Positions 2,783 through 52,603 of a stretch of DNA of 64,000 nt are shown piece after piece. The notes beneath the pieces were generated by a model. The model had not been told where the DNA came from. It ran no database searches and worked only from the letters and a program-made list of their open reading frames with translations. Source of the stretch: Candidatus Poribacteria bacterium (GTDB taxonomy: Bacteria > Poribacteria > WGA-4E > PCPOR2b); NCBI GenBank assembly GCA_965218095.1, contig OZ244587.1:4608001-4672000 (forward strand), in the 5' to 3' direction. The first letter of the stretch is position 1. Each line of letters starts with the position of its first letter. Both the position numbers and the translations under genes were made by a program.

Positions 2783-2797
2783 GTTGAAACCTCCCTG

Positions 2798-4770: not shown

Positions 4771-4781
4771 TTTGCCCTCCT

Positions 4782-5207: not shown

Positions 5208-5256
5208 ATTGATTTCCTCCTCTGTCCCATTCGATCTGACAGATGGCATTTCACTA

Positions 5257-6084: not shown

Positions 6085-6134
6085 TAATGATTCTACTGAG
6101 AATTTCATCAGCCATTCTTTCTTTCCCTCGGCTG

Positions 6135-6860: not shown

Positions 6861-7007
6861 ATTTTCCCTCTGTGAATGTAGAAACCAATTTCACGATAGT
6901 TTAGCATCACGAGAGGAAAGAATCAAGCGTAAAACGCGATGTGGGAAAGATTGCGTGACAGCGCTTTGTGGAACAATCGGAATGGCTATGCACTCCCTAT
7001 TCAGATA

Positions 7008-7754: not shown

Positions 7755-7837
7755 AACCAGCATAAAAATCGGTTGGCACATTCCTTGCTGCGACTCCATT
7801 GACTTTCAAATTGCCCAGACTCAGAAAGGAGCGCGAG

Positions 7838-8876: not shown

Positions 8877-9033
8877 ATTCGCACCAAATCGTCAGTAGCT
8901 GATGTGAAGAGTTTGCCCAATTCCGTGCAACAGCGGCGCTCTGAACGGTGAAGACGTCGCTTTTGAGGCTGGCACACACCTTGCAATTTCATGTCTCCGA
9001 TTTACACTCCATGCGTAAGGATGTAATTTTGTC

Positions 9034-30961: not shown

Positions 30962-31076
30962 AGCGCAACTCCGCGTCGCCGGTGCTGAGGCAGACAATCT
31001 CAGGGAACGCGGCGTTCCACTTGCTCTCAGGGTCTCAATATACCGTGACGTGCTGAAGCTCATTTACTGTAGCCAT
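30962..31076 (-). pseudogene. 5' remnant of a probable BNR/sialidase-like gene, truncated at the palindromic element
   Basis: AGGAGA RBS, then MATVNELQHVTVY*DPESKWNAAFPEIVCLSTGD, resembling the ..AFP....L..GD start of sialidase-type propellers. Confidence 0.5.
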
Positions 31077-31108
31077 TGGTTTCTCCTTTTCAACGTTAGT
31101 GGTTGTCA

Positions 31109-32602
31109 CTAAGGCGTAAAGGCGCAGCGAAAGCCAATGCCGGAGTTCGTGGTCGTGGGAGCGCGCCCGCCCCGTCTCAGCACGCTCACCTGATCGCCGA
31201 GGGTGCTGAAAAACGCCCCGCCGCGCGTCACACGCCGCGTGTCAACATTTGTGAAATCATCATTCACAAAAGCAACCGGGCCGCCGGCGATTGGGTTGTG
31301 CCTTGGGCTATTTGCGTAGAAGTCCTCCTGATACTCATCCATGCACCACTCGAAGACGTTCCCCGCCATGTCGTGCAAGCCGTAGCCGTTGGGTGGAAAG
31401 CTTCCCACAGGCGCCGTTTGTTCCCACTCATCGTTGCCTTCGACGCCCAGGGTATTGGCGTTACGGACGCGCTCATCCCCCCACGGCAACTTCTTGCCCT
31501 TCAGTTTCCCGCGGGCTGCCTTCTCCCACTCCGCTTCCGTCGGCAGCCGTTTGCCCGACCACTGCGCATACGCGGCGGCGCCGTACCAACTCACTTGAAT
31601 CACCGGATGATCCGCGAACCCCGCCTTCGGGCGGTACTGCCCCCCATCCAATTCTATCAACTCGCTGCCGCCGGCCTCAAGGTTGAACCAGGTCTTGCCA
31701 TCATCCCCCACATGCTTCCCAACCGCATTGAGGAATTTGGCGTACATGGCGTTGGTCACTTCCGTCACGTCAATGTAGAAGTCGTCGAGCTCGACGATGT
31801 GGACCGGGCGTGCGGTGCCGTCGTGGGCTCCATTGAAATGGTCGCCCATCTCAAACTCACCGGCGGGGATTAGCTGCATCGTCGCCCCGTCCGCGTCCCA
31901 GGTGAGCTCCGTCTTCCGCCTGATGGATATCGGCATTGTCTGCTCCGCCGTGACGGGGGGAGAAGTGCTGTTGCGGACCGTGAGCGTGATTGTATATATT
32001 CCTGAAGCGGTGTAGGTGTGTTCAGCGGTGAATTCTGTAGTAAATTCTGTCTGCTCCCCGTCTCCCCAATCCCAACTCACATCTTTAATCTCGCCCTGCG
32101 CCGCTTCGGAAGTACTCGCATCGACTTGGACATGGCCGTTTTCCAATTCTTCAGCATCTGACGCGGTAACCGTGAATCTGGCGAACAGTTTCGGGGCGTC
32201 TTTAACCGTGATAGACACACGGTTTTCCCCATCGATTAAAAGATTAACTGTCCCCTTCCCTTCAAACAAAACAACCCCGTCCTGTAAGATTTGGACCGTG
32301 ACGAACCGATCATCACCGGAGAGAATGTCTCTGACCGTGACTTCATGCGTTTGATTACTCCCCGCTTGGATAGTGAGATTTTGGTTTGTCGTGATGGGTT
32401 CATCAATGCCTGGCCCGGCAATCGTAATCGCTGCGACGTACTCCCCGTCCGCTGTGACGTTTGAAAAATTCATCACGATTTTTGCAGAAGTTGGGGTGGC
32501 TTCCTCCTCCTCTTCCCCACAACCGGATAAAAAGAGGGTGAAGCCAATCAACGGAAGTGTGATGAAACTTAAGAACTTTGTGATGAACTGTTGTGCAACC
32601 AT
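31109..32602 (-). CDS. Lipoprotein: Ig-like + PKD + FGE-sulfatase (C-type-lectin-fold) domain, copy 1
   Basis: LSGC lipobox, WDWGDG..H.Y...G.Y.ITLTV PKD motif, F.MG, EVTN..Y, RLPTEAEWEKAARG, NGYGL.DM.GNV.EW, RGG..GFRC; start MVAQQ after AAGGAG. Confidence 0.93.
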   Translation of the reverse strand: MVAQQFITKFLSFITLPLIGFTLFLSGCGEEEEEATPTSAKIVMNFSNVTADGEYVAAITIAGPGIDEPITTNQNLTIQAGSNQTHEVTVRDILSGDDRFVTVQILQDGVVLFEGKGTVNLLIDGENRVSITVKDAPKLFARFTVTASDAEELENGHVQVDASTSEAAQGEIKDVSWDWGDGEQTEFTTEFTAEHTYTASGIYTITLTVRNSTSPPVTAEQTMPISIRRKTELTWDADGATMQLIPAGEFEMGDHFNGAHDGTARPVHIVELDDFYIDVTEVTNAMYAKFLNAVGKHVGDDGKTWFNLEAGGSELIELDGGQYRPKAGFADHPVIQVSWYGAAAYAQWSGKRLPTEAEWEKAARGKLKGKKLPWGDERVRNANTLGVEGNDEWEQTAPVGSFPPNGYGLHDMAGNVFEWCMDEYQEDFYANSPRHNPIAGGPVAFVNDDFTNVDTRRVTRGGAFFSTLGDQVSVLRRGGRAPTTTNSGIGFRCAFTP

Positions 32603-32756
32603 TGTTTTCTCCTTTTTATCATCAGAAGTGAATGCCACGGACTTAAGCGGAATAATGCCGCTATCACCGCATTTACCTGCCATTGCCTGCCTGTGCGGTG
32701 CACGCAGACAGGCAATGGCAGATAGGCCGCGATTGTGTGATAAGGGAGTAAAGGAA

Positions 32757-34265
32757 TTAAGGTGTAAAGGCGCAACGAAAACCAAGGCCGGCGATCGAGC
32801 GCGTTGGAGCGGTACTATTCCGCACATACACGCGCAGTTCGTGGGCGTGGTTGTTGAAATACGAACCGCCGCGAAAGACGCGACGCGTGTCAACATTTGC
32901 GAAATCATCATTCACAAAAGCAACCGGGACGCCGGCGATTGGGTTGTGCCTTGGGCTATTTGCGTAGAAGCCTTCATCCCACTCATCCATGCACCACTCC
33001 GAGACGTTCCCAACCACATCGTGCACGCCGTAGCCGTTGGCTGGAAAGCTCCCCACAGGCGCCGTTTGTTCCCACTCATCGTCGCCCTCGACGCCTGCAT
33101 TCATGCCTCCATAATTGGCGTCATCATGGGTGAGTTCATCCCCCCACGGAAATGGCTTGCCCTTTAGTTTCCCGCGGGCTGCCTTCTCCCACTCCGCTTC
33201 CGTCGGCAGCCGTTTGCCCGACCACTGCGCATACGCGCCGGCGCCGTACCAACTCACTTGAACCACCGGATGATCCGCGAACCCCGCCTTCGGGCGGTAC
33301 TGCCCCCCATCCAATTCTATCAACTCGCTGCCGCCGGCCTCAAGGTTCAACCATATCTTGCCATCATCCCCCACATGCTTCCCAACCGCATTGAGGAATT
33401 TGGCGTACATGGCATTGGTCACCTCCATTGCGTCGATGTAGAAGTCGTCAAGTTCGACGATGTGGACCGGGCGTGCGTTTGCGTCGTGGACTCCATCGAA
33501 ATGGTCGCCCATCTCAAACGCACCGGCGGGGATCAGCCGCATCGTCGCCCCATCCGCGTCCCAGGTGAGCTCCGCCTTCCGCGCGACGGATATCGTGTTT
33601 GTCTGCTCCGCCGTGACGGGAACAGGGTCATCGTTTCGGACAGTGAGCGTGATTGTAAATTTTCCTGAAGCGGTGTAGGTATGTTCAGCGGTGAGTTCTG
33701 TAGTAAATTCTGTCTGCTCCCCGTCTCCCCAATCCCAACCCACATCTTTAATCTCGCCCCGCGCCGCTTCGGAAGTACTCGCATCGACTTGGACATGGCC
33801 GTTTTCCAATTCTTCAGCATCTGACGCAGTAACCGTGAATCTAGCGAACAGTTTCGGGGCGTCTTTAACCGTGATAGACACACGGTTTGCCCCTTCGATT
33901 AAAAGATTAGCTATCCCGTTCCCTTCAAACAAAACAACCCCGTCCTGTAAGATTTGGACCGTGACGAACCGATCATCACCGGAGAGAATATCTCTGACCG
34001 TGACTTCATGCGTTTGATCGCCCCCCGGTTGGATAGTGAGATTCTTGTTTGACGTGATGGGTTCAGCAATGCCTGGCCCGGCAATCGTAATCGTTGCGAC
34101 GTACTCCCCCTGCGCCGTGACGTTTGAAAAATTCATCACGATTTTTGCAGAAGTTGGGGTGGCTTCCTCCTCCTCTTCCCCACAACCGGATAAAAAGAGG
34201 GTGAAGCCAATCAACGGAAGTGTGATGAAACTTAAGAACTTTGTGATGAACTGTTGTGCAACCAT
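32757..34265 (-). CDS. Lipoprotein: Ig-like + PKD + FGE-sulfatase domain, copy 2
   Basis: Near-identical to copies 1 and 3; start MVAQQ at 34265. Confidence 0.93.
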   Translation of the reverse strand: MVAQQFITKFLSFITLPLIGFTLFLSGCGEEEEEATPTSAKIVMNFSNVTAQGEYVATITIAGPGIAEPITSNKNLTIQPGGDQTHEVTVRDILSGDDRFVTVQILQDGVVLFEGNGIANLLIEGANRVSITVKDAPKLFARFTVTASDAEELENGHVQVDASTSEAARGEIKDVGWDWGDGEQTEFTTELTAEHTYTASGKFTITLTVRNDDPVPVTAEQTNTISVARKAELTWDADGATMRLIPAGAFEMGDHFDGVHDANARPVHIVELDDFYIDAMEVTNAMYAKFLNAVGKHVGDDGKIWLNLEAGGSELIELDGGQYRPKAGFADHPVVQVSWYGAGAYAQWSGKRLPTEAEWEKAARGKLKGKPFPWGDELTHDDANYGGMNAGVEGDDEWEQTAPVGSFPANGYGVHDVVGNVSEWCMDEWDEGFYANSPRHNPIAGVPVAFVNDDFANVDTRRVFRGGSYFNNHAHELRVYVRNSTAPTRSIAGLGFRCAFTP

Positions 34266-34392
34266 TGTTTTCTCCTTTTTATCATCAGAAGTGAATGCCA
34301 CGGACTTAAGCGGAATAATGCCGCTATCACTGTATTTACCTGCCTGTGCAACAGCATACAGGCCGCGATTGTGTGACAGGGGGGTAAAGGAA

Positions 34393-35892
34393 TTAACGTG
34401 TAACGGCGCAGCGAAAACTAGTGCCGGAGGTCGTGCGCGTGGGAGCGGTACTATTCCGCACATAACAGGTCAGGTTCAACGCTGGGTGGGCGTTGAACCA
34501 CGCCCCGCCGCGAAAGACGCGACGCGTGTCAACATTTGCGAAATCATCATTCACAAAAGCAACCGGGACGCCGGCAATTGGGTTGTGCCTTGGGCTATTT
34601 GCGTAGAAGCCTTCATCCCACTCATCCATGCACCACTCCGAGACGTTCCCCGCCATGTCGTGCAAGCCGTAGCCGTTGGCTGGAAAGCTCCCCACAGGCG
34701 CCGTTTGTTCCCACTCATCGTCGCCTTCGACACCGGCATAATTGGCGTCATCATGGGTAACATCATCTCCCCACGGAAACTTCTTGCCCTCAAGTTCCCC
34801 GCGGGCTGCCTTCTCCCACTCCGCTTCCGTCGGCAACCGTTTGCCCGCCCACTGTGCATACGCGCCGGCGCCGTACCAACTCACTTGAACCACCGGATGA
34901 TCCGCGAACCCCGCCTTCGGGCGGTACTGCCCCTCAACCAATTCTATCAACTCGCTGCCGCCGGCCTCAAGGTTGAACCATATCTTGCCATCATCCCCCA
35001 CATGCTTCCCAACCACATTGAGGAATTTGGCGTACATGGCATTGGTCACCTCCATTGCGTCGATGTAGAAGTCGTCAAGTTCGACGATGTGGACCGGGCG
35101 TGCGTTTGCGTCGTGGACTCCATCGAAATGGTCGCCCATCTCAAACGCACCGGCGGGGATCAGCCGCATCGTCGCCCCATCCGCGTCCCAGGTGAGCTCC
35201 GCCTTCCGCTTGACGAGTATCGTGTTTGTCTGCTCCGCCGTGACGGGAACAGGGTCATCGTTTCGGACAGTGAGCGTGATTGTATATAATCCTGCACCGG
35301 TGTAGGTATGTTCAGCGGTGAATTCTGTAGTAAATTCTGTCTGCTCCCCGTCTCCCCAATCCCAACTCCCATCTTTAATCTCGCCCCGCGTCGCTTCGGA
35401 AGCACTCGCATCAACTTGGACATAGCCGTTTTCCAATTCTTCAGCATCTGACGCAGTAACCGTGAATCTAGCGAACAGCTTCGGGGCGTCTTTAACCGTG
35501 ATAGGCACGCGGTTTGCCCCTTCGATTGAAAGGTTAACTGTCCCCTTCCCTTCAAACAAAACAACCCCGTCCTGTAAGATTTGGACCGTGACGAACCGAT
35601 CATCACCGGAGAGAATGTCTCTGACCGTGACTTCATGCGTTTGATCGCCCCCCGGTTGGATAGTGAGATTCTTGTTTGACGTGATGGGTTCGTCAATGCC
35701 TGGCCCGGCAATCGTAATCGTTGCGACGTACTCCCCCTGCGCCGTGACGTTTGAAAAATTCATCACGATTTTTGCAGAAGTTGGGGTGGCTTCCTCCTCC
35801 TCTTCCCCACAACCGGATAAAAAGAGGGTGAAGCCAATCAACGGAAGTATGATGAAACTTAAGAACTTTGTGATGAACTGTTGTGTAGTCAT
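34393..35892 (-). CDS. Lipoprotein: Ig-like + PKD + FGE-sulfatase domain, copy 3
   Basis: Near-identical to copies 1 and 2; AAGGAG RBS. Confidence 0.93.
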   Translation of the reverse strand: MTTQQFITKFLSFIILPLIGFTLFLSGCGEEEEEATPTSAKIVMNFSNVTAQGEYVATITIAGPGIDEPITSNKNLTIQPGGDQTHEVTVRDILSGDDRFVTVQILQDGVVLFEGKGTVNLSIEGANRVPITVKDAPKLFARFTVTASDAEELENGYVQVDASASEATRGEIKDGSWDWGDGEQTEFTTEFTAEHTYTGAGLYTITLTVRNDDPVPVTAEQTNTILVKRKAELTWDADGATMRLIPAGAFEMGDHFDGVHDANARPVHIVELDDFYIDAMEVTNAMYAKFLNVVGKHVGDDGKIWFNLEAGGSELIELVEGQYRPKAGFADHPVVQVSWYGAGAYAQWAGKRLPTEAEWEKAARGELEGKKFPWGDDVTHDDANYAGVEGDDEWEQTAPVGSFPANGYGLHDMAGNVSEWCMDEWDEGFYANSPRHNPIAGVPVAFVNDDFANVDTRRVFRGGAWFNAHPALNLTCYVRNSTAPTRTTSGTSFRCAVTR

Positions 35893-36317: not shown

Positions 36318-37229
36318 CTAATACTGTGTTTTCACACGGCCCCAGGTTGTTGTGACTTTTTTCTTGCCAGGATCAACTGCAAAGGGGTGCTGAAAGTTTG
36401 AGTCAGCCTGCTTCGCATCCATCGTAAAGTCATAAATCCGGACAAGATGGACTGAGCCGTTCATGTTCCGATGCTCTTCACCAAGAACCTGGCAAAATAT
36501 GGCGTTAAAGTTCATATCGGCGCCTTTGTCGAAGTCCTGCTCCGGAAAGCCGAGGTTACCGATAAACTCGCCATCCAGGTACTGTTTAACTTGCTTCTTC
36601 GCATCATCGTAAGTGTATATGATGTGGACCCACCTGGTTCCGACCGTCAGGCCGACATCGTGGTGATTCTTCCGTTTGTCGTATACGGTATTAGCCCCCA
36701 GGAGGTAGATCCAGACGTCATCCACATCCGGTCCAAATATCCAGTTTGTAAAGCCAATCATAATCCACTGGGCTCCGGTGGCAAAAGCTTTGCCATCTTT
36801 CGTGGAATGAAAGCCCATTACTTGATGCTCTGCACCTTTCATGGGGCCGTTGCGTTTCATGATGACCTCGAAGCTCCAGTTCTCCAGATGTAGGTTCGGA
36901 GTGAAGCCGGCTGGGGCGGCAAACATCTGGTTTATATCGGTAGTTTTGAACGCTGTCGGCGCCGGACCTCCTGGTTCGTAAAACTCTTCCCCTTTTTCAA
37001 GTTTCGGAGTTCCCTTTCCCAAGTCTGCTCCACCGGGAATTTCGTCCCCGGCCGTGCCGATGTTCTGCCAGGCGCCGTTTTTGAACTGCGCTTCGCCAGC
37101 GAGCATCAAGAGCTGGGGCTCCTCTGGGATTATACCTTGCACTATCGAACCGCTCATGGCAAAGAGAAACACGCCAAGAATGGCAACTCCTTTTATGTGA
37201 TGGTGATTGAATTGATTCAAGCGTAACAT
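36318..37229 (-). CDS. Exported LamG/concanavalin-A-like protein with C-terminal WG-K motif
   Basis: Signal-like N-terminus, W.HI..TYD, YLDG, NGS...VR.YD; ends AVDPGKKKVTTTWGRVKTQY; start after GGAGG. Confidence 0.85.
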   Translation of the reverse strand: MLRLNQFNHHHIKGVAILGVFLFAMSGSIVQGIIPEEPQLLMLAGEAQFKNGAWQNIGTAGDEIPGGADLGKGTPKLEKGEEFYEPGGPAPTAFKTTDINQMFAAPAGFTPNLHLENWSFEVIMKRNGPMKGAEHQVMGFHSTKDGKAFATGAQWIMIGFTNWIFGPDVDDVWIYLLGANTVYDKRKNHHDVGLTVGTRWVHIIYTYDDAKKQVKQYLDGEFIGNLGFPEQDFDKGADMNFNAIFCQVLGEEHRNMNGSVHLVRIYDFTMDAKQADSNFQHPFAVDPGKKKVTTTWGRVKTQY

Positions 37230-37288
37230 ATTAATACCTCCGTAATGAAATTCGCAACAACTTCTGTTGCAGGTTAGTTGAAGCTTCG

Positions 37289-37333
37289 TCATAAATGTCG
37301 TGTTCAGGCGTGGCCTGAACACGACATTTATGA
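37289..37333. repeat. Perfect 21-bp hairpin in the leader of the LamG gene
   Basis: TCATAAATGTCGTGTTCAGGC-GTG-GCCTGAACACGACATTTATGA. Confidence 0.9.
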
Positions 37334-37385
37334 TCAACCTCAGTTAGTTCGTTGGAATGGTTCATTTTTCAGGAAGGGTTAAAAG

Positions 37386-37414
37386 ATTATACCCGATAAA
37401 TCTACTTTTGTCAA
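37386..37414 (-). promoter_or_regulatory. Consensus sigma70 promoter for LamG gene 36318-37229
   Basis: Minus strand TTGACA-17 bp-TATAAT. Confidence 0.8.
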
Positions 37415-37640
37415 TCAATATTAAACCAACGCCCCCCGGCCCCCAATTCCCCGATGGATCGGGGCAGGCTTCAGGAGTTTTTGCAATTCTCCCCTTCCCC
37501 CCAAAGTTGGGGGGATTGAGGTCTCGGACTCTCGGTCGAAGACCGGAGGGGGCGGGGACCGCCGGACAAGCCGAAGATCCCGACCTAAGGTCGAGGGGGC
37601 ACGGAGAATTAAATGCCCCTAGTCAATATTAGATCTGGAG

Positions 37641-38525
37641 TTAATAGCCCCGTTTCACACGGCCCCAGGTGGTTGTGAGTTTATCAGCAGGTTCAACAGC
37701 CAATGAAGCTATGAAGTTGTTGCGAACCCCACCTGCGCCAAGATCCTCGTCATACACCCGGACGATGGTGATTGAACCGTTGAAGGTCGAATTTACGAAG
37801 TTCTGGTCGCCCGGTTGTGCAACGAGGACAAAGTTCTGCCCCATGGCCGTGCCTTTGTTGAATTTTTCCACTTTGCGCGCTTGGTCCGCCTTGCCATCTA
37901 TGTAGGACTGGACGGTTTTACCGTCGTGGGTGAGCACTACTTGGTGCCAGTCTCCTGTTCTGATACCTTCATCGGTTTTGAGAGTGACAGCTTTCTTACC
38001 TTTAGGTTTGATCTCGGCTATGATCTGTCCCTTTGCCCCCTTGTCTACGAGCATGCGAATATACTGCCACTCCTTATTGGCTTCCGCTGCCTCGAGGTTG
38101 GGATCACCCCCTTCAACGAAGCCGAAGAAGAGAATTCCGTTCTCCTCTGCGCCTTTGAACGCTTCGCCGTTGCGCCTCAACCAGACCTCGACGGTCCAAT
38201 TCCCCAGCTTTATCTCCGGCGCTGTGCCTCGCTTCCCGCCGAAGGAACTTTCCGGCGCCGAGGCGGTGAAGTGTGCCGGGTTTTTGCCTTCTGCCGCGGA
38301 AAATTTTGGCGGAGGTGGGAAGACATGCCCCCCAATGCGGCCAGCGTCTAGATTCAGGGGAAAGACGCCGCCCGCGGCGCCAAGGTTCCTCCACGACAAT
38401 TTAGCGGTGTCTGCAGCGTTAAGATCGATTAGAGCGCCTTCCTTAACATCTTGACCGAATGCCACTGGACTAACCATTGCCAAGACAAACGCCACGCTCA
38501 GAATTGCAATTAGTTGACGTCTCAT
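37641..38525 (-). CDS. Exported LamG-like protein with C-terminal WG-K motif
   Basis: Signal peptide MRRQLIAIL...AFG, WTVEVW, WHQVV.T.DG, YIDG, FNGSI..VRVYD; ends AVEPADKLTTTWGRVKRGY. Confidence 0.88.
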   Translation of the reverse strand: MRRQLIAILSVAFVLAMVSPVAFGQDVKEGALIDLNAADTAKLSWRNLGAAGGVFPLNLDAGRIGGHVFPPPPKFSAAEGKNPAHFTASAPESSFGGKRGTAPEIKLGNWTVEVWLRRNGEAFKGAEENGILFFGFVEGGDPNLEAAEANKEWQYIRMLVDKGAKGQIIAEIKPKGKKAVTLKTDEGIRTGDWHQVVLTHDGKTVQSYIDGKADQARKVEKFNKGTAMGQNFVLVAQPGDQNFVNSTFNGSITIVRVYDEDLGAGGVRNNFIASLAVEPADKLTTTWGRVKRGY

Positions 38526-38587
38526 TTTATATCTTCCTGTACTGCTTATTTTACAGAGCACTACCTTTATCAATATTAGATCTGGAG

Positions 38588-39481
38588 TTAATAGCCCTGT
38601 TTCACACGGCCCCAGGTGGTTGTGAGTTTATCAGCAGGTTCAACAGCCAATGAAGCTATGAAGTTGTTGCGAACCCCACCTGCGCCAAGATCCTCGCCAT
38701 ACACCCGGACGATGGCGAGTGAACCGTTGAAGCTCGACTTTACGAAGTCATGGTCGCCCGGTTGTGCAACGAAGACAAAGTTCTGACCCATCTTCGCGGC
38801 TTTGTCCCATCCTTCCACTTTGCTCGCTTGGTCCGCCTTGCTATCTATGTAGGACTGGACGGTTTTACCGTCGTAGGTGAGCGCTACCTGGTGCCAGTCT
38901 CCTGTTCCGATACCTTCATCGGTTTTGAGAGTGACAGCTTTCTTACCTTTAGGTTTGATCTCGGCTATGATCTGCCCCTTCGCCCCCTTGTCTACGAGCA
39001 TGCGAATATACTGTATGTCGTTAGCCATCGCTTCCTTGACAATGTCGCCAGCGTTGTGTAGATCTTCGGGGATGAAGCCGAAGAAGACAAACCCGTTCTC
39101 CTCTGCGGGTTCGACCATTTCGCCGTTGCGCCTCAACCAGACCTCGACGGTCCAATTCCCCAGCATTATCTCCGGCGCTGTGCCTCGCTTCCCGCCGAAG
39201 GAACTTTCCGGCACCGAGGCGGTAAAGTGTGCCGGGTTTTTGCCTTCTGCCGCGGAAAATTTTGGCGGAGGTGGGAAGATATGCCCCCCAATGCGGCCAG
39301 CGTCTAGATTCAGGGGAAAGACGCCGCCCGCGGCGCCAAGGTTCCTCCACGACAATTTAGCAGTGTCTGTAGCGTTAAGATCGATTAGAGCGCCTTCCTT
39401 AACACCTTGACCGAATGCCACTGGACTAACCATCGCCAAGACAAACGCCGCGCTCAGAATTGCAATTAGTTGACGTCTCAT
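38588..39481 (-). CDS. Exported LamG-like protein, tandem near-duplicate of 37641-38525
   Basis: Same architecture; ends AVEPADKLTTTWGRVKQGY; the 3' flank TCAATATTAGATCTGGAG is duplicated too. Confidence 0.88.
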   Translation of the reverse strand: MRRQLIAILSAAFVLAMVSPVAFGQGVKEGALIDLNATDTAKLSWRNLGAAGGVFPLNLDAGRIGGHIFPPPPKFSAAEGKNPAHFTASVPESSFGGKRGTAPEIMLGNWTVEVWLRRNGEMVEPAEENGFVFFGFIPEDLHNAGDIVKEAMANDIQYIRMLVDKGAKGQIIAEIKPKGKKAVTLKTDEGIGTGDWHQVALTYDGKTVQSYIDSKADQASKVEGWDKAAKMGQNFVFVAQPGDHDFVKSSFNGSLAIVRVYGEDLGAGGVRNNFIASLAVEPADKLTTTWGRVKQGY

Positions 39482-39625
39482 TTTATACTCTCCTATACTG
39501 TCTGGCAAAAAATTGCCATCATATACGTCACTCATGTTCAATATCTTTTTTGCTTAGATTATGAGCGACAACACCTTCACTTGACACTTGAGGTACAATC
39601 CATCATATAGAATGATTAACTAACT

Positions 39626-39654
39626 ATTCTATCACAATCCCAAATTCTTGTCAA
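39626..39654 (-). promoter_or_regulatory. Sigma70-type promoter for the LamG duplicate pair
   Basis: Minus strand TTGACA-17 bp-TAGAAT. Confidence 0.65.
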
Positions 39655-39781
39655 CCCTTTTTTCCATTCTCCGAGGGCTATTTATCTCCGAGGGCTATTT
39701 AATTTTCGATATTCGATGATACCAGGGTGGGGCGGTACTCCACCTTGGAAAGGTTACGATTTATCTGGACTTTGCGTAAAG

Positions 39782-40669
39782 CTAATATCCCCTTTTCACA
39801 TGGCCCCAGGTGGTTGTGAGTTTATCGGCAGGCTCAACAGCCAAAAAATCTATGAAGTTCGTACGAACCCCACCCGCGCCAAGCGCCTTGTCATACACCC
39901 GGATGATACTGAGTGAACCGTTGAAGCTCTCCCCGTTGCGGTCCCAGTCAAGTTGTCCAAGGAAAACCATGTTCTGATCCATAACCTCAGGCACGAAGGC
40001 CACATCCACGTCGTGCAACTTTTGCGCCTTGCCATCTATGTAGGACTGGAGTGTTTTGCCATCACCCTTGTATTCGACCGCAAACTGGCGCCACTCTCCT
40101 GTTCCGATACCCTCTTCGGTTCTGAAAGTCAGAATTTTGCCCTGTGGCACTTTGACCTTGAAGACTATCTGCCCCGCTGCCCCATCTGCTACGAACATAC
40201 GAATATACTGCACGTTGGGGGCATCGAGTTCAAATACGCGTGCCGCTTGATCTACCTTCTCCGACCCGAGGCCGAAGTAGGCAAGTCCGTTCTCGTCGCC
40301 CTGTTCCCACGCTTCGCCGTTGCGCCTCAACCAGATCTCAATGGTCCAGCTCGTCCCCAGCTTGAAGTGCGAAGCGGTGCCGCGTATTGAGCCGAAGGAG
40401 CTAGACGGTACCTCGCTGGTGTAATGTGCCGGCTCGTCACCCTCGGCCTTTACGTGTTTGGGCGGAGGTGGGATTTTCGACCAGTTGTCTGCATTTAGGG
40501 CAAATTTTCCGCCGGACGTGCCATCATTCCCCCAAAACAATGGCCTAGCATTCTCGCTCGCCGCGTTAAGCTCTATCTGGGCGCCAGGGGCAACACCGAA
40601 TGCCATTGAACCGGCCATTGTCAAGACAAATGCCGCGCTCAGAATTGAAATCGGTTTTAGGCGTATCAT
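39782..40669 (-). CDS. Exported LamG-like protein with C-terminal WG-K motif
   Basis: More diverged paralog; WTIEIWLRRNG, QYIRM, FNGSL..IRVYD; ends AVEPADKLTTTWGHVKRGY. Confidence 0.88.
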   Translation of the reverse strand: MIRLKPISILSAAFVLTMAGSMAFGVAPGAQIELNAASENARPLFWGNDGTSGGKFALNADNWSKIPPPPKHVKAEGDEPAHYTSEVPSSSFGSIRGTASHFKLGTSWTIEIWLRRNGEAWEQGDENGLAYFGLGSEKVDQAARVFELDAPNVQYIRMFVADGAAGQIVFKVKVPQGKILTFRTEEGIGTGEWRQFAVEYKGDGKTLQSYIDGKAQKLHDVDVAFVPEVMDQNMVFLGQLDWDRNGESFNGSLSIIRVYDKALGAGGVRTNFIDFLAVEPADKLTTTWGHVKRGY

Positions 40670-41053
40670 TTTATATCCTCTTGTATCGTAAGTAACTATG
40701 CGAAATATTCTTGCACTTTTGATCCTGCAAGAAACTACACACCACAAAAAACCGTTCAAATTTTATCAGAAAACGAAAATTTTGTCAATCCTTAACTTTA
40801 AAACTCAGGTGGATCGGAGTAAACTCTGCTCAGATTCATCGGAGGGAGCACGTTGCTTATTCTCCCTGCTCCTTTTCTACCCTGTTTCCCCTCTGAATAC
40901 GCACGACGCCCAATGCCTATCGGTTTGGGATAAACACTGGAACTTCCTAAGTGCGATCGCCCTGAGGTAAGGAGGGATTAATACGAGTTTTTCACTGAGC
41001 GGTTGGAGCCAGGATATGCCTGATTTTCCCCTACAACTGAAAAAGTCGTAGAA

Positions 41054-42025
41054 TTAGGGTGTAAGTGCGCAGCGAAAACCAACGTTGTTGCGCGTGTCCG
41101 TTGGGTCGCGGCTGTTGCGGCTCGCCACGCGCAAGTGACGAAAATGGAGGTTCCAACTCCCGCCGCGAAGGACGCGCACTGTATTAACACTTGTGAAACT
41201 ATTGTTCATAAAAGATATTAGCCCGCCTGCAATCGGGTTCTCCTTCGGACTGTTCGCATAAAAGCCTGACTGGTACTCATCCATGCACCACTCCCAGACG
41301 TTCCCCGCCATGTCGTGCAAGCCATAGCCGTTGGGTGGGAAGCTGCCGACGGGAGAAGTTCGTTCCCACTGCTTGGCTCCCTCTGCGCCGAGATAATTGG
41401 CGTTATCCTGAGAGATCTCATTGCCCCACGGATACCGCTTACCGTCTAATCCACCACGAGCGGCTTTCTCCCACTCTGCTTCGGTGGGCAGGCGTTTCTC
41501 CGCCCACTGGGCATAAGCAGCGGCGCCATACCAGCTCACCTTAGTTACCGGATGATCCGCGAAGCCCGCCTTCGGGCGATACTCTCCGTAAACCAATTTA
41601 ATCAACGCGTTTGCGTCGTCAACCTCCAACCATTCTTTTCCATCATCCCCCACATGCTGACTGACAGCATTGAGGAACTTCGCGTACTGGGCGTTGGTCA
41701 CTTCGTAAACGTCGAGGTAGAAATCGTCGAGATAGACGGAATGTCGAGGCACTTCATCTTCAAAAGATGAACGTTGAACTGCAAAGAAAGCAAAGTCAAG
41801 CACTAATTGATCAGCCTCTGCTTCGGTAGTTCCCATCTCAAACTCCCCGGCGGGGATGAGCTGCATCGTCGCGGTCGCGTCATCCTTTTCGGTGATAATT
41901 TCTTCCGGGTTCTGAGGTGGCGTATCTTCTTCAGTCAATAGGTCGGGTGTATCGTTAGCACAGCCCGTCAATAAAAGGCAGGGCAAGGAAAAGGCGCATA
42001 TTGAGATGACTGTAAATTTCCACAT
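41054..42025 (-). CDS. Lipoprotein with FGE-sulfatase (C-type-lectin-fold) domain, no PKD
   Basis: LTGC lipobox; RLPTEAEWEKAARGG, GNVWEW, RVLRGGSW...R.N.VGFRC. Confidence 0.92.
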   Translation of the reverse strand: MWKFTVISICAFSLPCLLLTGCANDTPDLLTEEDTPPQNPEEIITEKDDATATMQLIPAGEFEMGTTEAEADQLVLDFAFFAVQRSSFEDEVPRHSVYLDDFYLDVYEVTNAQYAKFLNAVSQHVGDDGKEWLEVDDANALIKLVYGEYRPKAGFADHPVTKVSWYGAAAYAQWAEKRLPTEAEWEKAARGGLDGKRYPWGNEISQDNANYLGAEGAKQWERTSPVGSFPPNGYGLHDMAGNVWEWCMDEYQSGFYANSPKENPIAGGLISFMNNSFTSVNTVRVLRGGSWNLHFRHLRVASRNSRDPTDTRNNVGFRCALTP

Positions 42026-42288: not shown

Positions 42289-44196
42289 TTAGATAAACCG
42301 ATTAAGCAGATTTCTGCCGAGAAGCGTTCCCAACAAGCCCCAGAAGCTCACCATGACGAAGTCCCCCAGAACAAGACCGATGAAAAATACGCTTGCCCTG
42401 CGATGAAGGGCTAACCCACCAAATTTCAAGATAATCCATTTTAAGAGCCAGCTTATGAATATCGAAAACCAGAGGATTCCAGACGACGGCCAGGGCCCGC
42501 CGAGAAGATATCCCATCGGGTGGAACGGCCACCAGATAAAGACGCGGTGCATAAAAAGTAAAAAGAACCCGATAAAGGCGCCAAACCCCATTGTAACCAG
42601 GGAAAGGACATCCGCGGGCTGGGGGTAGAGAAGCCGGTTCGTCAGCATATTGAATATGCTCCACTGGTCGCTGCCGGCATGGGGACCGCCCTTTATCTGA
42701 TATGAAGAATGGAGTACCGCCCAGCATGCGGCAAACGTGCCGATGATAATCGCCAGAACCATCCCCCAAATCAACATTTTATCTATCTTGAGCCGCATCC
42801 GCTCGGCCATCTTAAACGTCTCCAGTTGATAAGGTTGTGGGTTGCCCCTGTGACCACTGGTCAGAAAATAGAGAAAGGGAAACAGCGTCAAACTCTTGGG
42901 GCCAATCCGGCGAGTTCCCACAGCTGCCACCACGATGAGATCACTCCAGAGCCCCTCATGCATCGGATAGCCGACCTCCGCTCGGATGCGCGTGACAACC
43001 AGCGAAATGGCGAAGAAAATCAGGAAGAACATCGCAGCTACCCAGACTTTCATCCCCGCATAGGAAAGAAACCCCACCAGATATCCGAAGCTCAGGAGAA
43101 GCCCTAAAACCGCCCATCTATACCCCTTTAACTCAGCGGCGTCTCCCTCAGTATGACCGAAAAAGCTTCTTAGGATCTTCAACGCCTGAAACCGATACAT
43201 CCAGAGGGAAAAAAGCAGGATGGCAGCGGAAGTGCCGACGGCCTGTTCCCATTCGAACGGAAATCCCTGCAAGGCCCCCACCCCTGTGAGCCTTCCCAGT
43301 ACCCGCTCAAAACGCCAGACCCAATAGAAAAACCACATGGAGAAGGACATCTCCAGCGGCATGAAATAAGCTAAACCAATCACAAAGGGATGAAAAGCTC
43401 CGCTAACCCCGCCAAGGGCGTCCCATGGCCGGGTCGTGAAGTATTGACTCAACGAGAACCCCTCAACGAGGATGCCCGGAACATTCGGGTAGAGATAGTG
43501 AAAGCCGTTTATCAAGGTCCTCCCGGCGGCGAGGGCAAACCCTATCCATAAAAGCCCGCTCTTGAACAGCCCTGCGCCTTTGTCTATCATCTCCAGAGGG
43601 ATTTGCGTCAGCGGATAGGAGAGTCTTTCATGCTCTATCCATTGACGACGCACCAGAATCGTTGTGCAGAGCATAAATAACACCGCCGCTATGGTCACCA
43701 TAGCCCATGCGATGGAAGGGATGAGCCATGTCCTTATATATTCCTTCACGTAGAGGGTGCTTTCACCTGTGTAATATCCATCGAGGACCAACTTATCGCT
43801 GACCACGAGCCATCTGGGGATGTAGGGATGAAAAAGCTTCCACTCGTTTTCCGGCGTCGCGTAATAGAAGGCATGCCCCAGCCCAGGATAGAGATGTTGA
43901 AGCATGTCATGCCCGGCGAGTCCAGATGAGATGGATAACATCGCATGCAGGAGCAGCATCTCCGTCTTGGTCAGGGCAACCGAAGGGAGAAACCGCTTGA
44001 GGGGGATGTTCAGGAAGCACAGGACGAAGAGGATTGAGACAACGTTCATGAAGAGGGAGAAACGGGTGAAATTCACCCCGTATCCGAGATAACCCGTATG
44101 TATCACCCACAGGGTGTTCAACGGCATAAGGATCAGGGTGAAAAAAATGAGTTTTATCGTTGTAAAGGAACCCGCTCTATGTCTCTTTTTATCCAA
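42289..44196 (-). CDS. Large polytopic membrane protein (DUF6785/DUF6784-like, putative transporter)
   Basis: Many TM segments; RRQW...ERL.YPL, RIRAE.G.P, WWPFHP.GY, W.LK..IL.FGG and FF.GL.LG-type motifs. Confidence 0.75.
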   Translation of the reverse strand: MDKKRHRAGSFTTIKLIFFTLILMPLNTLWVIHTGYLGYGVNFTRFSLFMNVVSILFVLCFLNIPLKRFLPSVALTKTEMLLLHAMLSISSGLAGHDMLQHLYPGLGHAFYYATPENEWKLFHPYIPRWLVVSDKLVLDGYYTGESTLYVKEYIRTWLIPSIAWAMVTIAAVLFMLCTTILVRRQWIEHERLSYPLTQIPLEMIDKGAGLFKSGLLWIGFALAAGRTLINGFHYLYPNVPGILVEGFSLSQYFTTRPWDALGGVSGAFHPFVIGLAYFMPLEMSFSMWFFYWVWRFERVLGRLTGVGALQGFPFEWEQAVGTSAAILLFSLWMYRFQALKILRSFFGHTEGDAAELKGYRWAVLGLLLSFGYLVGFLSYAGMKVWVAAMFFLIFFAISLVVTRIRAEVGYPMHEGLWSDLIVVAAVGTRRIGPKSLTLFPFLYFLTSGHRGNPQPYQLETFKMAERMRLKIDKMLIWGMVLAIIIGTFAACWAVLHSSYQIKGGPHAGSDQWSIFNMLTNRLLYPQPADVLSLVTMGFGAFIGFFLLFMHRVFIWWPFHPMGYLLGGPWPSSGILWFSIFISWLLKWIILKFGGLALHRRASVFFIGLVLGDFVMVSFWGLLGTLLGRNLLNRFI

Positions 44197-44421: not shown

Positions 44422-46281
44422 CTAATACCAGTTGAGACTCTCGTTAGAGACAAATCGCCTCACCTTTCGCCAGCGGGGGTTGTCGTCACGATAGTGCTGG
44501 CGCTGATAGAGCGGACAGTACTTCCCTGGCGGATCAATTGCCACGACCTCATTCCCCTTGCGCACCACGACATATCGACGCTTCTCCACGTGCACCTCCT
44601 CCGTTTGTTCAGCGATGGGGAATGTCACTGTGGCTATGTTCCCCGGATGCAGACTGCCGACTTGAGCATATCGACCATCCCATCCGATGTTCCGGTCGGC
44701 GCCGTTCACTTGGACGCGTGTGTCTTTGGGTGTGACCCACTCCGGAATGCGAACGGACAGATCCACCGATTGCTTCGCCTTTATCTCCACACGCCCTTGA
44801 TAAGGAATATAGCTGTCGATATCCGCCCACCTCGAAGCCCGGTTCAGAAGCAAGTTTACTTTGAGCTTGCCATCCTTGTAGGTGAGGGTACGGTCCCAAA
44901 TAAGATACAAGGCACGCGCCCCATTTGCTGTACAGCAGTGCATGATACCGGCACCATTGCCGACATACCAATCGTTGGCGGCAGGCCAGCCCGCGAAGGC
45001 GCCCAAATTGCACTCCCCCACCCGATCAGTGGACTGAAAGGTGGCATCCATCTGACTCGGAATGGCATGACGCGGTTGGGGCTTGGTCCAGCCCGCCTCG
45101 GGCAAACGGTTAATCCAGTCTGTTCTGAGCAACTGCCCCTCGGCAAACATATTGCGCACCCACCGGTCAGCTTCATCCCAGTAGTCACCTACCCCTTCCT
45201 CGCTAAGTCGTAAGGCGAGCGAGATCATGTCGGAGACCTCACAGATCTCGGACGTCTGGTATTCTGGACTGTTGGCAAACTCCGGAAAATAGCCAAGCAG
45301 CGTATTACCTTGGGTCTTAGCATATTCATAGCTCTTCAGCACAAACTCCATCAGTTCTTGGTCATTTGTGACCAGCGAATACTCCATCATTGACAGGAGA
45401 CCGTGGGTGTGGGCGTGAAAGTGAGCATTCATCGGAGTGTTCGGCAGACAAAGGTAGGTACCGTCAGGGGTGAAAAAGTTCTCAACTTGGTAAGTAATCA
45501 ACTTACGAGCCAGCGCCAGGGCAGGTTCATAGTCGATTTGTTTGTAGGCGTGCACTAAACCAAGGGGAACTCGCGAGCTTTCCGCGTCGTGGCGGTGACT
45601 CACCGGTGGTGAAACATCCGTTGGATGCGTCTTCTCGCCGCACAAAGGGCTTGGCCAGAAGTAGGCACCGTGCCCATCGTCCACAGCCAGCTCGATAAGG
45701 CCATCCACCAAACGGCGGATCGCCTCTTTCCACATCGTGCCGCTATCGCGTATGGAATACAGTGACATCGTGCTCAGCGTCCGACCATTGGTGAAAGGAT
45801 GAATCCATTGATCAACATCAGCTAATCGGTGAACCCAGGGGTCGGAATTTCTGTGATAGGCCCAAGGGCGGCCCCTCACAGGAATGTAGATAAGTCCATC
45901 GGGCCCTTGCTGTTTTAGCATTATCTCCATCCAGCGACGTTCTACGTGAAGGTTCTGTTCACTGCCACTCATCATTCGCATCAAGGACAGAGCCTCTTGA
46001 AATTTGGGCGTAATCGAATGGTCGACCCAGTTATTCTCCATCATAGGGGGAGTGCTGCGGAAAAAGACCAACCAGTAGATCTCATAGTCTGCCAGAGGGT
46101 TGGTAGGTTCAGTCATACCATGGACAGCTAAAGTCGCTCGTTCAGCCAGATCCAACGTGTCAGGTACCAGTACTTCGTAACTCTCGCCGCGATAAGATGG
46201 CAAATCAAACACGGGTATCTCCGACCGAATGTAACCAATGGGATCACCCGGCTTCCAGTTTTGATTATAGTTTGTAGACAT
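44422..46281 (-). CDS. GH127/DUF1680-like glycoside hydrolase homolog
   Basis: HFHAH, E.CE..D, RN...E.Q, HCC..NG.RALY, PY.G.V, RIPEW, GN.VV.IDP.G motifs; start MSTNY. Confidence 0.7.
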   Translation of the reverse strand: MSTNYNQNWKPGDPIGYIRSEIPVFDLPSYRGESYEVLVPDTLDLAERATLAVHGMTEPTNPLADYEIYWLVFFRSTPPMMENNWVDHSITPKFQEALSLMRMMSGSEQNLHVERRWMEIMLKQQGPDGLIYIPVRGRPWAYHRNSDPWVHRLADVDQWIHPFTNGRTLSTMSLYSIRDSGTMWKEAIRRLVDGLIELAVDDGHGAYFWPSPLCGEKTHPTDVSPPVSHRHDAESSRVPLGLVHAYKQIDYEPALALARKLITYQVENFFTPDGTYLCLPNTPMNAHFHAHTHGLLSMMEYSLVTNDQELMEFVLKSYEYAKTQGNTLLGYFPEFANSPEYQTSEICEVSDMISLALRLSEEGVGDYWDEADRWVRNMFAEGQLLRTDWINRLPEAGWTKPQPRHAIPSQMDATFQSTDRVGECNLGAFAGWPAANDWYVGNGAGIMHCCTANGARALYLIWDRTLTYKDGKLKVNLLLNRASRWADIDSYIPYQGRVEIKAKQSVDLSVRIPEWVTPKDTRVQVNGADRNIGWDGRYAQVGSLHPGNIATVTFPIAEQTEEVHVEKRRYVVVRKGNEVVAIDPPGKYCPLYQRQHYRDDNPRWRKVRRFVSNESLNWY

Positions 46282-46626
46282 CTGCTTCCTCCTATAAGAA
46301 AAGTGAAAAGTCAGAAACAAGGAGAACAAGGGACTACCCCCGATAAATCAGGGTAGAGCCTGGTCTCGCATAGCGGACTCCGAGAATCGGAGAGCGTTGC
46401 CCTCCCGGGGGGGGGTAGCAAACCATCAATCTTCACGTATGTTTCATAGACAACCTGGACGGTTATACTCATGTAGGTTATTATTTGTGAATTTCTATGT
46501 GAAGAGATATCGCATCCAGGAAGAAAGGGAAGGAGGAGAAGGAATGGAAGAAAGGCGAAATTCCTTCCTTTCCCTCCATTCTTCCTTTCCTTCCAAACTT
46601 GAAATTATAAGTTCACATTTCTCGTT

Positions 46627-50642: not shown

Positions 50643-52439
50643 CTATCGATAGAGCAACTCGTCCGAGGCAAACCGGGTGACTTTCTTCCAGTGCACCGTG
50701 TTGTCCCGGTAGTGCTCACGCTGGTAGAGCGGATGGTACACACCTGTTGGCTGGATGTTAACCACCTCGTTCCCCTTGCACACCAGATTGTACGGCTGCT
50801 TCTCGATCGTGACCCAGTGGGTGTGCTCCTCAATCGGGAAGGTCAGCGCCGCTACCGTGCCAGCCGCAGTCTGGCCCACCTGCGCGTAGCGCCCTTGCCA
50901 GCCGACCGTACGGACCTCACCATCCACCCGACAGGTGATTTGCTCCGGCTCGACCCACTCCGGGATGCGTATTGACAGCTCTACGTCCTGCTTGATCTTG
51001 ACATCAACCTGGCCCTCGTAGGGTAGGTAGCTGTCTATATCGGCCCAAGGCGACGTCCGGTTAAGCAGCAGATTCACCCGCAGCTTGCCCCCCTCATGGG
51101 TGAGAATGTGCTCCCAGATGAAGTAGAGTGCCCGTGAGCCAGTTCCGGAGCAGCAGCCGGCGAAGCCCATATTATGGCCGCCCATAAAGTCATTCGGCAA
51201 AGCAGAGCTGGTGAAGGCGCCTACACACGCGTCCCCGACACCTTCTGTCCGCTGGCGGCGAGGGTCCGTTTGGCTCCATGCTGTTGAGGACCCGTGTGGA
51301 CCTGACCAGGCCCGCCGCTCGATCCAGTCGCCGTGGGTTAACTGCTGCTCCACAAACTGGTTGCGCAGCCAACGGTCCACGTCGTCCCAGTAGTCACCCG
51401 CGCCGATAATGCTCAAGCGCAAGCCCAGGCCGATCATGTCCGCCAAGCCGCAGGTCTCGCACATCTGGAAGTTCTCCCGGAAGAGCAGCTCCGGAAAGTA
51501 GCCCGTCCGAGGTTCGCCGTGGACGCGGGCGAACTCGAACCCCTGCTGCGCAAACTCAATCAGTTCTTGGTCGCCGCCTGCAGCCAGGGCGTAGTCTAGG
51601 ATTTCCAGCAGGGAATGGACGTGGGCGTAGAAGTGGGCTTCGGGCCCCGGTCGGCGTTTGCACGCCCGAAAGCTGGCGTCAGGGCCGAAGTGGTTGCCGT
51701 GATTTTTGATGGTCCGCACCAGCTTGCCTGCCAGTTCCAGGCAAGGCTCGTAGCCGGTCTCCTGGAAAAAGAGGAGCAGCCCGTGCACCACCCACCCTCC
51801 ATGGGAGACCATGTGTGGGTTCGGCATGGTCGGATCGGTCCAGGGGATAACGCTCTGGGGAAAGTACGCGTAATCGCCCTTATCCACCACATTCGCCGCC
51901 AGCCCCTGCACCAGCCGCTCGCCGGTCTCTTTCCACAGAGACTCGCGGCTGCGATGATAGTAAAGCGCCAGGATGGTAAGTCCCCAGGCGCCCGTTAAGA
52001 TGGAGGTCCGATCGCCCGTGCTGGCGCCATGGGTCCCGAGCGAGTTGAAGGCCAGCCAGGGCCTTTCCTCGATCTTCTCGTAGAGCAGCCCATCCGGCGC
52101 TTGCATGTGCAGCAGGACCTTCGTCCAATGTTCCTCCACGTGCGTATTGAGGTCGCTGCCGCTCATAATCCGCATGAGTGGCAACTGATCGTGCCATAAC
52201 ATTTGATTCCAGATGTCCCAGTGCCAATGCCCGATAAAGGGAGGATTGCTCCCCAAAACTGTCACGTAGTAAATTTCGTAATCAGCCTCGGGATCGCTCC
52301 GGGATGTTATACTATGGATAGCCAGAGCCGCCCGCTCCTGCAGATCAAGGGTAGCGGGGACCATGGCTTCGTAGCGTTGTCCCTTATAGGGTGGAATCTC
52401 AAAAGCTGGAATCTCCTCACGTATGTACTTGAAATCCAT
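50643..52439 (-). CDS. GH127/DUF1680-like glycoside hydrolase homolog (paralog of 44422-46281)
   Basis: HFYAH, CETC..AD, RNQF.EQQ, GCC.G.G.RALY, PYEG.V, RIPEW. Confidence 0.7.
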   Translation of the reverse strand: MDFKYIREEIPAFEIPPYKGQRYEAMVPATLDLQERAALAIHSITSRSDPEADYEIYYVTVLGSNPPFIGHWHWDIWNQMLWHDQLPLMRIMSGSDLNTHVEEHWTKVLLHMQAPDGLLYEKIEERPWLAFNSLGTHGASTGDRTSILTGAWGLTILALYYHRSRESLWKETGERLVQGLAANVVDKGDYAYFPQSVIPWTDPTMPNPHMVSHGGWVVHGLLLFFQETGYEPCLELAGKLVRTIKNHGNHFGPDASFRACKRRPGPEAHFYAHVHSLLEILDYALAAGGDQELIEFAQQGFEFARVHGEPRTGYFPELLFRENFQMCETCGLADMIGLGLRLSIIGAGDYWDDVDRWLRNQFVEQQLTHGDWIERRAWSGPHGSSTAWSQTDPRRQRTEGVGDACVGAFTSSALPNDFMGGHNMGFAGCCSGTGSRALYFIWEHILTHEGGKLRVNLLLNRTSPWADIDSYLPYEGQVDVKIKQDVELSIRIPEWVEPEQITCRVDGEVRTVGWQGRYAQVGQTAAGTVAALTFPIEEHTHWVTIEKQPYNLVCKGNEVVNIQPTGVYHPLYQREHYRDNTVHWKKVTRFASDELLYR

Positions 52440-52603
52440 AGGGGTTGCCTCCTCAGATAGCAATTGGTTTTTGTAATCGTCCCCTGTGTAATCGTCCCCT
52501 GGTTGTGTTACATTGATTATGTTATGCGCTGCGAACCGAAAATTCTCACCAACTCAGGCGTAGCACCTTGGCTATATTCGGGATATTGCGGTCTGCTCTG
52601 CGT

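Follow-up and report, generated by a model that had tools for sequence, protein, structure and literature searches.

Proteins whose C-type lectin (CLec) fold belongs to the subclass named after the formylglycine-generating enzyme (FGE) are described as building their ligand-binding site from C-terminal strands (PMC5006420). In TvpA of Treponema denticola (PDB 2y3c), the corresponding segment is reported to be rewritten from a template repeat (TR) by a diversity-generating retroelement (DGR). According to an account of solved DGR variable proteins, the rewritten variable region (VR) is supported by inserts, mainly insert 2, which lies between helix alpha2 and strand beta2 (PMC5006420). In the survey of Wu et al., FGE-sulfatase targets are given as 19% of DGRs (PMC5758913). 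Here we analyse a stretch of 64,000 nucleotides (the window) of a sponge-associated Candidatus Poribacteria genome (G000, assembly GCA_965218095.1), taken from its single 6.35-Mb contig OZ244587.1 (G000:C1:4608001-4672000). The window carries three tandem genes, A, B and C, encoding putative lipoproteins with this fold. A preliminary description, made from the sequence alone, regarded them as remote or former DGR targets or as a ligand-binding repertoire under strong diversifying selection. We find that no retroelement acts on A–C today. The genes are probably, in our assessment, an inherited array of paralogues whose scaffold is homogenised by conversion while two islands remain distinct.

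Three near-identical putative lipoproteins with two divergent islands

Genes A (31109–32602), B (32757–34265) and C (34393–35892) are open reading frames (ORFs) on the minus strand, coding for 497, 502 and 499 amino acids (aa). They share one architecture: an LSGC lipobox, an N-terminal beta domain, a PKD domain and an FGE-sulfatase/CLec domain, B and C being 84% and 82% identical to A. All three start with ATG (at 32602, 34265 and 35892), 6–7 nt 3' of AAGGAG, and the 30 nt upstream of A and of B are identical. A shorter paralogue, D (41054–42025, minus strand, 323 aa), has an LTGC lipobox and the FGE domain only. The N-termini read ...FTLFLSGCGEEEEE in A–C and ...LLLTGCAND in D, and they fit the lipobox pattern, [LVI][ASTVI][GAS]C, at the end of a putative signal peptide. 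Pfam finds FGE-sulfatase in A, B and C (E = 3.1e-59, 6e-61 and 9.6e-58), with PKD in all three (PKD_4 in A, E = 1.7e-13), and in D it finds FGE-sulfatase (E = 4.8e-66) and no PKD. Scores of 196–224 bits against a gathering cut-off of 23.3 for PF03781 place these proteins in the superfamily. The AlphaFold2 model of A has a mean pLDDT of 78, with block means of only 51–56 at residues 461–480, and its top Foldseek matches are the FGE structures 2q17 and 6muj (probability 1.00). Homologues of the genes carry Candidatus Poribacteria protein names in the source records. A further full-length paralogue, E (G000:C1:4686795-4688282), lies 15 kb past the end of the window and is 64% identical to A. More broadly, 15 FGE domains of the genome, drawn from 22 FGE-sulfatase matches after exclusion of broken, partial and stop-containing ones, share the framework RGG/RGS...(F/I)R with different fillings.

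The preliminary description had pointed to a sharp divergence between RGG and FRC in otherwise near-identical tandem genes, and identities in 20-codon windows bear this out. Nucleotide identity is 0.82–1.00 along most of the A/B/C alignment and falls to 0.54/0.47/0.75 (AB/AC/BC) at codons 471–490, with an excess of non-synonymous differences in the segment relative to the scaffold (Fisher exact test, p = 2.8e-16, 2.7e-18 and 3.9e-11). This first island, delimited by the identity drop and by translation, covers the codons between RGG and FRC on the minus strand: 31133–31216 in A and 32781–32864 in B (28 codons each), and 34417–34503 in C (29 codons). The extra codon of C, a CCA, is the one-codon indel already noticed, and the four peptide segments quoted for A–D are exact, each bounded by RGG and FRC on translation. 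The segment of D lies at 41078–41158 (minus strand).

There are two divergent spots besides the one originally seen. At codons 201–230, A departs from B and C (identity 0.72–0.78). At codons 371–390 identity drops to 0.62/0.62/0.83 (AB/AC/BC), and codons 371–392 contain a 4-codon indel. The latter forms a second island, delimited by the identity drop, the indels and translation. On the minus strand it occupies 31430–31507 in A (residues 366–391, the loop after helix 356–364), 33078–33170 in B, with a 4-codon insertion encoding GGMN, and 34717–34797 in C. In the AlphaFold2 model of A it follows helix 356–364 and precedes strands 386–393. This topology would give it the place of CLec insert 2 and, therefore, the two islands probably form one surface.

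Silent divergence, probable conversion and strain stability

The islands are older than the scaffold at silent sites. Synonymous divergence (dS) in the first island is 0.52/0.37/0.18 (AB/AC/BC) against 0.09/0.11/0.05 in the scaffold, a 3.5–5.7 fold increase (Fisher p = 8.3e-5, 0.011 and 0.054). We also counted silent changes only in codons that specify the same amino acid in both copies, which removes selection at the protein level. At such codons the scaffold has 17/349, 22/341 and 11/359 changes, the second island 3/15, 3/13 and 5/20, and the tail 8/25, 4/24 and 4/33 (p = 6.4e-5, 0.08 and 0.029 for the tail compared with the scaffold). These changes are not limited to adenines. The genes have a mosaic history. 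Among 191 variable sites, A stands alone at 107, B at 29 and C at 45, with all three different at 10, and the site patterns are clustered along the gene (longest-run permutation test, p = 0.0017 for BC and 0.0079 for AC).

These patterns suggest the following account. Tandem duplication of an envelope lipoprotein gene with beta-sandwich, PKD and non-catalytic FGE-type CLec domains would have produced the array. Most of the repeat unit would then be held near-identical as the copies undergo gene conversion or unequal recombination with one another, while the two islands, the RGG...FRC segment and the loop after helix alpha2, would escape homogenisation and remain as three stable versions. The outcome would be three binding specificities on one common scaffold. 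Selection may protect the islands, and sequence divergence alone could also shield them from conversion. In the non-DGR FGE genes of related genomes, segments of orthologues are similar across species and those of paralogues are different.

The preliminary description called the C-terminus hypervariable. This is correct between paralogues but not between strains, where the segments are conserved. Other assemblies (6.27 Mb, 5.30 Mb and a 45.8-kb contig) contribute to the protein clusters of A, B and C at 90% identity. The cluster members have 18, 54 and 5 variable alignment columns, respectively, and none in the segment. No difference occurs in the last 62 alignment columns, which hold the segment, among the members that extend to the C-terminus (4/6 members for B, 4/4 for C). 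Paralogue E differs in this respect, with 4 of its 19 variable columns across three assemblies falling in its segment. We also examined Logan contigs from four runs (X1–X4) of three studies, the neighbours of which include sponge metagenome labels. Contigs over the segment of A (31068–31311) have no differences in X1 and X2 and one in X3, those over B (32638–32895) none in X1, X2 and X4 and one in X3, and those over C (34301–34534) none in any of the four runs.

The same four runs all contain a variant of positions 31244–31426, often at greater depth than the version of the window itself, with a 9-nt deletion at 31270 and additional changes. The deletion coincides with a 3-residue gap of protein P0006 in the alignment, which suggests a related strain sharing the samples. 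Apparent joints between copies in the Logan contigs have sides of 24–50 nt and were not used as evidence.

Retroelements in this genome and in related Poribacteria

DGRs do act on sister genes in the same family. A search for RVT_1 in 31 related genomes gave matches in 14, and led to two reverse transcriptases (RTs) of 352 aa adjoining FGE genes. The first belongs to a complete DGR in G002 (L043, G002:C1:4849000-4859000) with two tandem lipobox-FGE targets (2354–3523 and 4011–5114), an Avd (5235–5594), the RT (5591–6649) and a TR (6736–6849) that is one of three copies of a 114-nt repeat family. Its VRs differ from the TR at 20 and 15 of 33 adenine (A) sites and at 0/66 other sites. Between the targets lies a C-terminal RT fragment (3646–3933), and a broken second Avd is found at G002:C1:4848799-4848984; these fragments suggest duplication and decay of the cassette. 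The second DGR is of the same kind but in another genus (L044, G017:C1:2842000-2854000). On the minus strand it has the RT (5576–6634), an Avd (6631–6981), a TR (5376–5489) and VRs at 725–838, 3568–3681, 7134–7247 and 8912–9025. One of its four targets is a 912-aa WD40-FGE protein, an architecture also described in Wu et al. 2018 (PMC5758913). Taken together, the six VRs of G002 and G017 differ from their TRs at 15–23 of 31–33 A sites, and at 66–68 non-A sites they have no mismatch (four VRs) or six (two VRs). The latter two, both of L044, may be drifting beyond the reach of the template.

A third locus, in G014 (L082, G014:C1:1150000-1164000), is a decayed DGR. It retains two large targets with FGE domains (2236–4347 and 5731–7665), an Avd (7835–8182) and a 46-nt TR remnant (8320–8365), and has no RT. 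The Avd family NF033474 is above its cut-off of 80 bits in 3 of the 61 genomes searched, which are precisely G002, G014 and G017 (116–119 bits; 117.7 in G002 and 119 in G014). In G002 and G017 the variable region is exactly the RGG...GFRC stretch of tandem FGE lipoproteins, and it occupies the same alignment columns as the segment of A–C, so the divergent segment was rightly placed at the position of a DGR variable region. Among the papers listed in literature searches (the supplementary tables of surveys lay outside them), none treated DGRs of Poribacteria or of sponge symbionts, and among the matches listed for Poribacteria, formylglycine and sulfatase there was no paper on these genes.

In G000 we found none of the DGR parts. 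RVT_1 has three matches at two loci (~599 kb and ~1095 kb) and none in the window at 4608–4672 kb, in agreement with the absence of an RT there in the preliminary description. The RT at ~599 kb (L001:1060-2873) is a group II intron RT/maturase (TIGR04416) that ends in an HNH tail and is broken by a frameshift into ORFs of 244 and 364 aa. The one at ~1095 kb (L003:1072-2595) is the antiviral RT Drt4 (505 bits with NF041749, the cut-off of which is 450; PADLOC Drt4, E = 2.9e-161). A tblastn search with the DGR RT of G002 retrieved only these two in G000, at 24–30% identity. The corresponding search with Avd gave no hit in G000 below E = 1.8, and NF033474 had no match there, HRDC-type accessories being outside this search. 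The last 200 nt of A–D, searched for a template repeat against the whole genome (blastn, word size 7), matched paralogues only, and the TRs of the relatives matched only D, E and a pseudogene in G000, at 70–76%. Hence, the suggestion of remote DGR targets finds no footing in this one-contig genome without TR, DGR RT or Avd.

Two broken FGE copies of G000 were considered as DGR remnants and set aside. A truncated C-terminal fragment with an Asn-rich, VR-like tail (G000:C1:4107858-4108127) was rejected as a possible TR: its blastn matches to FGE genes are restricted to the conserved upstream part, tblastn gave no RT or Avd hit at this place, and the ORF list shows no evident RT-like ORF within 7 kb (an inspection made by ORF list, not by a family-library scan). 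A frameshifted FGE gene of the D/E type (G000:C1:1623988-1624775) was uninformative, with 11/66 non-A mismatches to the G002 TR, close to the 13/66 of an ordinary paralogue. These dead copies, at 1624 kb and 4107 kb, are the only partial copies, and they do not match the segments of A–C; there are no silent donor cassettes.

The segments of A–C do not carry the signature of adenine mutagenesis either. The preliminary description had drawn attention to codons that keep a third-position C. This holds for the five codons that it quoted, but over the segment (34 codons) the three codon positions differ about equally often: 15/12/12, 12/15/13 and 9/7/7 (positions 1/2/3; AB, AC, BC). True or orphaned pairs of DGR VRs give 10/8/1, 10/9/1 and, in G014, 12/9/2. 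Pooled, third-position differences are 32/102 in A–C and 4/62 in the DGR pairs (Fisher p = 1.6e-4). Every paralogue is enriched for mismatches at TR-adenine sites, and we therefore relied only on the non-A rate compared with controls. A, B and C mismatch the TRs of the relatives at 27–35% of non-A sites, inside the range of 11 non-DGR FGE genes of the relatives (16–46%), whereas the orphaned G014 targets have 12–15% against foreign TRs. Gene D, the segment of which equals the TR core of the relatives in length, mismatches the G002 TR at 16/33 A sites and at 17/66 non-A sites, so it is not a current DGR target. When the variable segment is left out, a tree of the FGE domain places the DGR targets in a clade of their own (support 81/97). 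A, B and C form one clade (100/100) within a clade with E and D (99/99), itself nested in a clade with non-DGR genes (100/99), some from genomes without any RVT_1 match (G003, G007, G013 and G018).

A DGR reading of A–C is thus unsupported in G000, as TR, RT and Avd are lacking, codon positions are hit equally, silent changes are in excess, an indel separates the copies and the segments are stable. The genes could nonetheless be fossil targets, if an ancestral DGR of the G002/G017 kind had diversified the copies and been lost, leaving VRs that froze and then drifted. We consider this unlikely. It is true that DGRs are found on tandem FGE lipoproteins in the same family, that the G014 locus and the RT and Avd fragments beside the G002 element show such elements decaying, that the segment of divergence falls exactly on the VR and that the clade of DGR targets is a near neighbour of the A–E clade. 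However, the orphaned targets of G014 keep their signature and A–C do not. In addition, the segments measure 28, 28 and 29 codons against a TR core of 26–27, the silent changes at conserved residues in and near the segment are not at adenines, A–E group with non-DGR genes of RVT_1-free genomes, and the second island lies outside any VR. The description of former DGR targets is therefore not upheld, although a very old DGR origin could conceivably have left no signature.

Several results weigh against an inherited array kept uniform by conversion. The silent excess in the tail is weak for AC (p = 0.08), and AB shows no significant conversion run (permutation p = 0.35). The ratio of non-synonymous to synonymous divergence (dN/dS) in the first island is 1.05, 1.73 and 1.74, against 0.5–0.6 in the scaffold, and its bootstrap 95% intervals (0.47–2.51, 0.89–3.82 and 0.62–7.08) all span 1. 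In a post hoc comparison, the 3' half of the segment of B differs from the G002 TR at 12/15 A sites and at only 1/24 non-A sites; A and C have 3/24 non-A mismatches each and the 11 controls 4–11/24. This AAC-like pattern, which speaks for fossil targets, is not reproduced with the G017 TR (4/25). Finally, consensus proteins and Logan contigs are blind to rare variants, and some of the runs may hold the assembled strain itself. Regarding selection, the ligand-binding repertoire stands as the better of the options originally offered, but strong diversifying selection does not follow, as the dN/dS intervals include 1 and the variants are conserved. Diversifying selection on the segment is plausible from these sequence comparisons.

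A more far-reaching proposal builds on the conversion of the scaffold. The array might be a retroelement-free counterpart of a DGR, in which binding-site cassettes (the RGG...FRC segment together with the insert-2 loop) are kept as discrete alleles and reshuffled by recombination, both among the tandem copies and between symbiont strains that live together, onto scaffolds homogenised within each genome. Such a system may have been seeded by the DGR that remains functional in sister genera and is seen decaying in G014. The hint of reshuffling comes from the products of short JGI contigs (2.3–3.1 kb), which pair another N-terminal half, common to them, with C-terminal parts (~100 to ~180 alignment columns, depending on the protein) that equal those of A (in P0004), B (in P0005 and P0135) or C (in P0133), the breakpoints falling at two different places. 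These mosaics would mean exchange of cassettes between scaffolds or, as a related strain is present alongside in the samples, could be chimeric assemblies. When metagenomes were scanned for DNA of the mosaic relatives, none of the 37 loci obtained was close, the best reaching 56% identity. A family-wide search with P0005 revealed no genome with this 'J' type of N-terminal half; 11 of the 29 genomes have matches at E = 1e-120, and outside G000 the best of these are 48–52% identical. We hold the proposal as tentative and, on present evidence, doubtful.

Function, remaining alternatives and known systems

The catalytic Cys pair of FGE was said to be absent from these FGE/CLec-fold lipoproteins, and this is borne out. 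In an alignment to 6muj/2q17, A has gaps or residues other than Cys opposite the two cysteines of the enzyme. The segment of B has no Cys and that of C has one, at another position. Without the SUMF1-type pair, the proteins are not formylglycine-generating enzymes proper. They might still be periplasmic enzymes of the SUMF1/EgtB/PvdO superfamily with differing substrates, a question of function only, which would be compatible with the evolutionary account given above. In one source homologues go by the name 'SUMF1/EgtB/PvdO family nonheme iron enzyme', there are partial NCBIfam matches to EgtB, SenA and PvdO, and the top structural matches are enzymes. But these family matches are far below their cut-offs (94.9 bits against 360 for EgtB and 61.6 against 500 for PvdO, that to SenA being partial and also far below), the DinB-type domain of EgtB is lacking, the FGE cysteines are missing, and the closest members with a known route of diversification are the binding proteins of DGRs. 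We therefore rate an enzymatic role as rather improbable. The match to the type IX ring lipoprotein GldK/PorK (TIGR03525) is likewise far below its cut-off (129.6 bits against 350).

The neighbourhood is rich in lectin folds. Positions 36318–40759 (minus strand) hold four tandem genes for secreted Laminin_G_3 proteins, the middle two being near-duplicates; every one of these proteins ends in a common motif, ...TTTWGRVK.. followed by Y. Laminin_G_3 is a concanavalin-like lectin domain, and this second lectin-fold paralogue array adjoins the FGE array and is followed by D. Because of this setting and of the sub-threshold enzyme matches, we infer that A–C are envelope-anchored binding proteins with three specificities. 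Further along, the gene at 42289–44196 (minus strand, 635 aa) encodes DUF6785 and DUF6784 (E = 2.4e-141) and appears from its sequence to be a multi-pass membrane protein. The adjacent gene at 44422–46329 (minus strand, 635 aa) has only a sub-threshold match to a GH127 middle domain, as does that at 50643–52463.

The history of the array could also be simpler. If A–C were recent duplicates, their binding loops might have diverged fast by point mutation under positive selection, with no conversion. The low dS of the scaffold (0.05–0.11) fits a recent duplication, the dN/dS of the segment exceeds that of the scaffold, and the three genes form one fully supported clade. Yet positive selection does not explain why silent divergence at unchanged amino acids is raised in both islands. 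Together with the severalfold higher dS and the clustering of site patterns along the gene, this makes the explanation quite improbable. That an RT and a TR elsewhere still rewrite the segments in trans is very improbable indeed: Wu et al. 2018 (PMC5758913) record chromosomal DGRs with remote targets that lie over 100 kb away from the RT, and at a CheckM-type completeness of 93.9% an extrachromosomal element could be missing, but the 6.35-Mb contig has no TR, DGR RT or Avd, the segments differ in length and so have no single shared template, and they are identical in other assemblies, with 0–1 differences in contigs from four runs and three studies.

An inherited array homogenised outside its islands can be compared with four known systems. 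FGE itself (Streptomyces coelicolor 2q17/6muj; human 1y1e) is the best match, in sequence (E = 6e-38) and in structure (Foldseek E = 6e-18, target-normalised TM-score 0.67 for A). It differs in that its catalytic cysteines lie inside the segment that diverges here, where A and B have none. TvpA has the same FGE-subclass CLec fold as A–C (sequence match, E = 1.6e-9) and also diverges at the C-terminus, before the last invariant strand. Formylglycine-generating activity is expected in neither. The segment of TvpA is rewritten by its DGR, whereas A–C are fixed alleles without TR, RT or Avd, and A–C have a beta domain and a PKD domain in addition.

The loci of the relatives (G002, G017 and G014) are a third system. 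Like A–C, they encode proteins in tandem, each with a putative lipobox, an Ig-like part at the N-terminus and an FGE domain, the target scaffolds being 81–98% identical and diverging in RGG...GFRC. Unlike A–C, the G002 and G017 loci have an Avd, a 352-aa RT and a TR, and the DGR targets of the relatives form a clade separate from A–E. Within one bacterial family, the same lectin-fold binding site of surface lipoproteins would be diversified by two routes, a retroelement in G002 and G017 (decaying in G014) and fixed paralogues here. This is a caution for surveys of DGRs, because tandem FGE genes that are near-identical save at the VR position do not suffice to call a DGR target. The pair of routes also offers a natural comparison for asking which ligands these proteins allow sponge symbionts to recognise.

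Multigene families that undergo concerted evolution but have variable regions protected from it are a general phenomenon. A–C resemble them in their near-identical units, conversion-like tracts and islands of older divergence, but show no evidence of programmed high-frequency switching and have no silent donor cassettes. A–C are a gene family of a known kind, and the DGRs, active or decaying, that their relatives have on sister genes make it more instructive.

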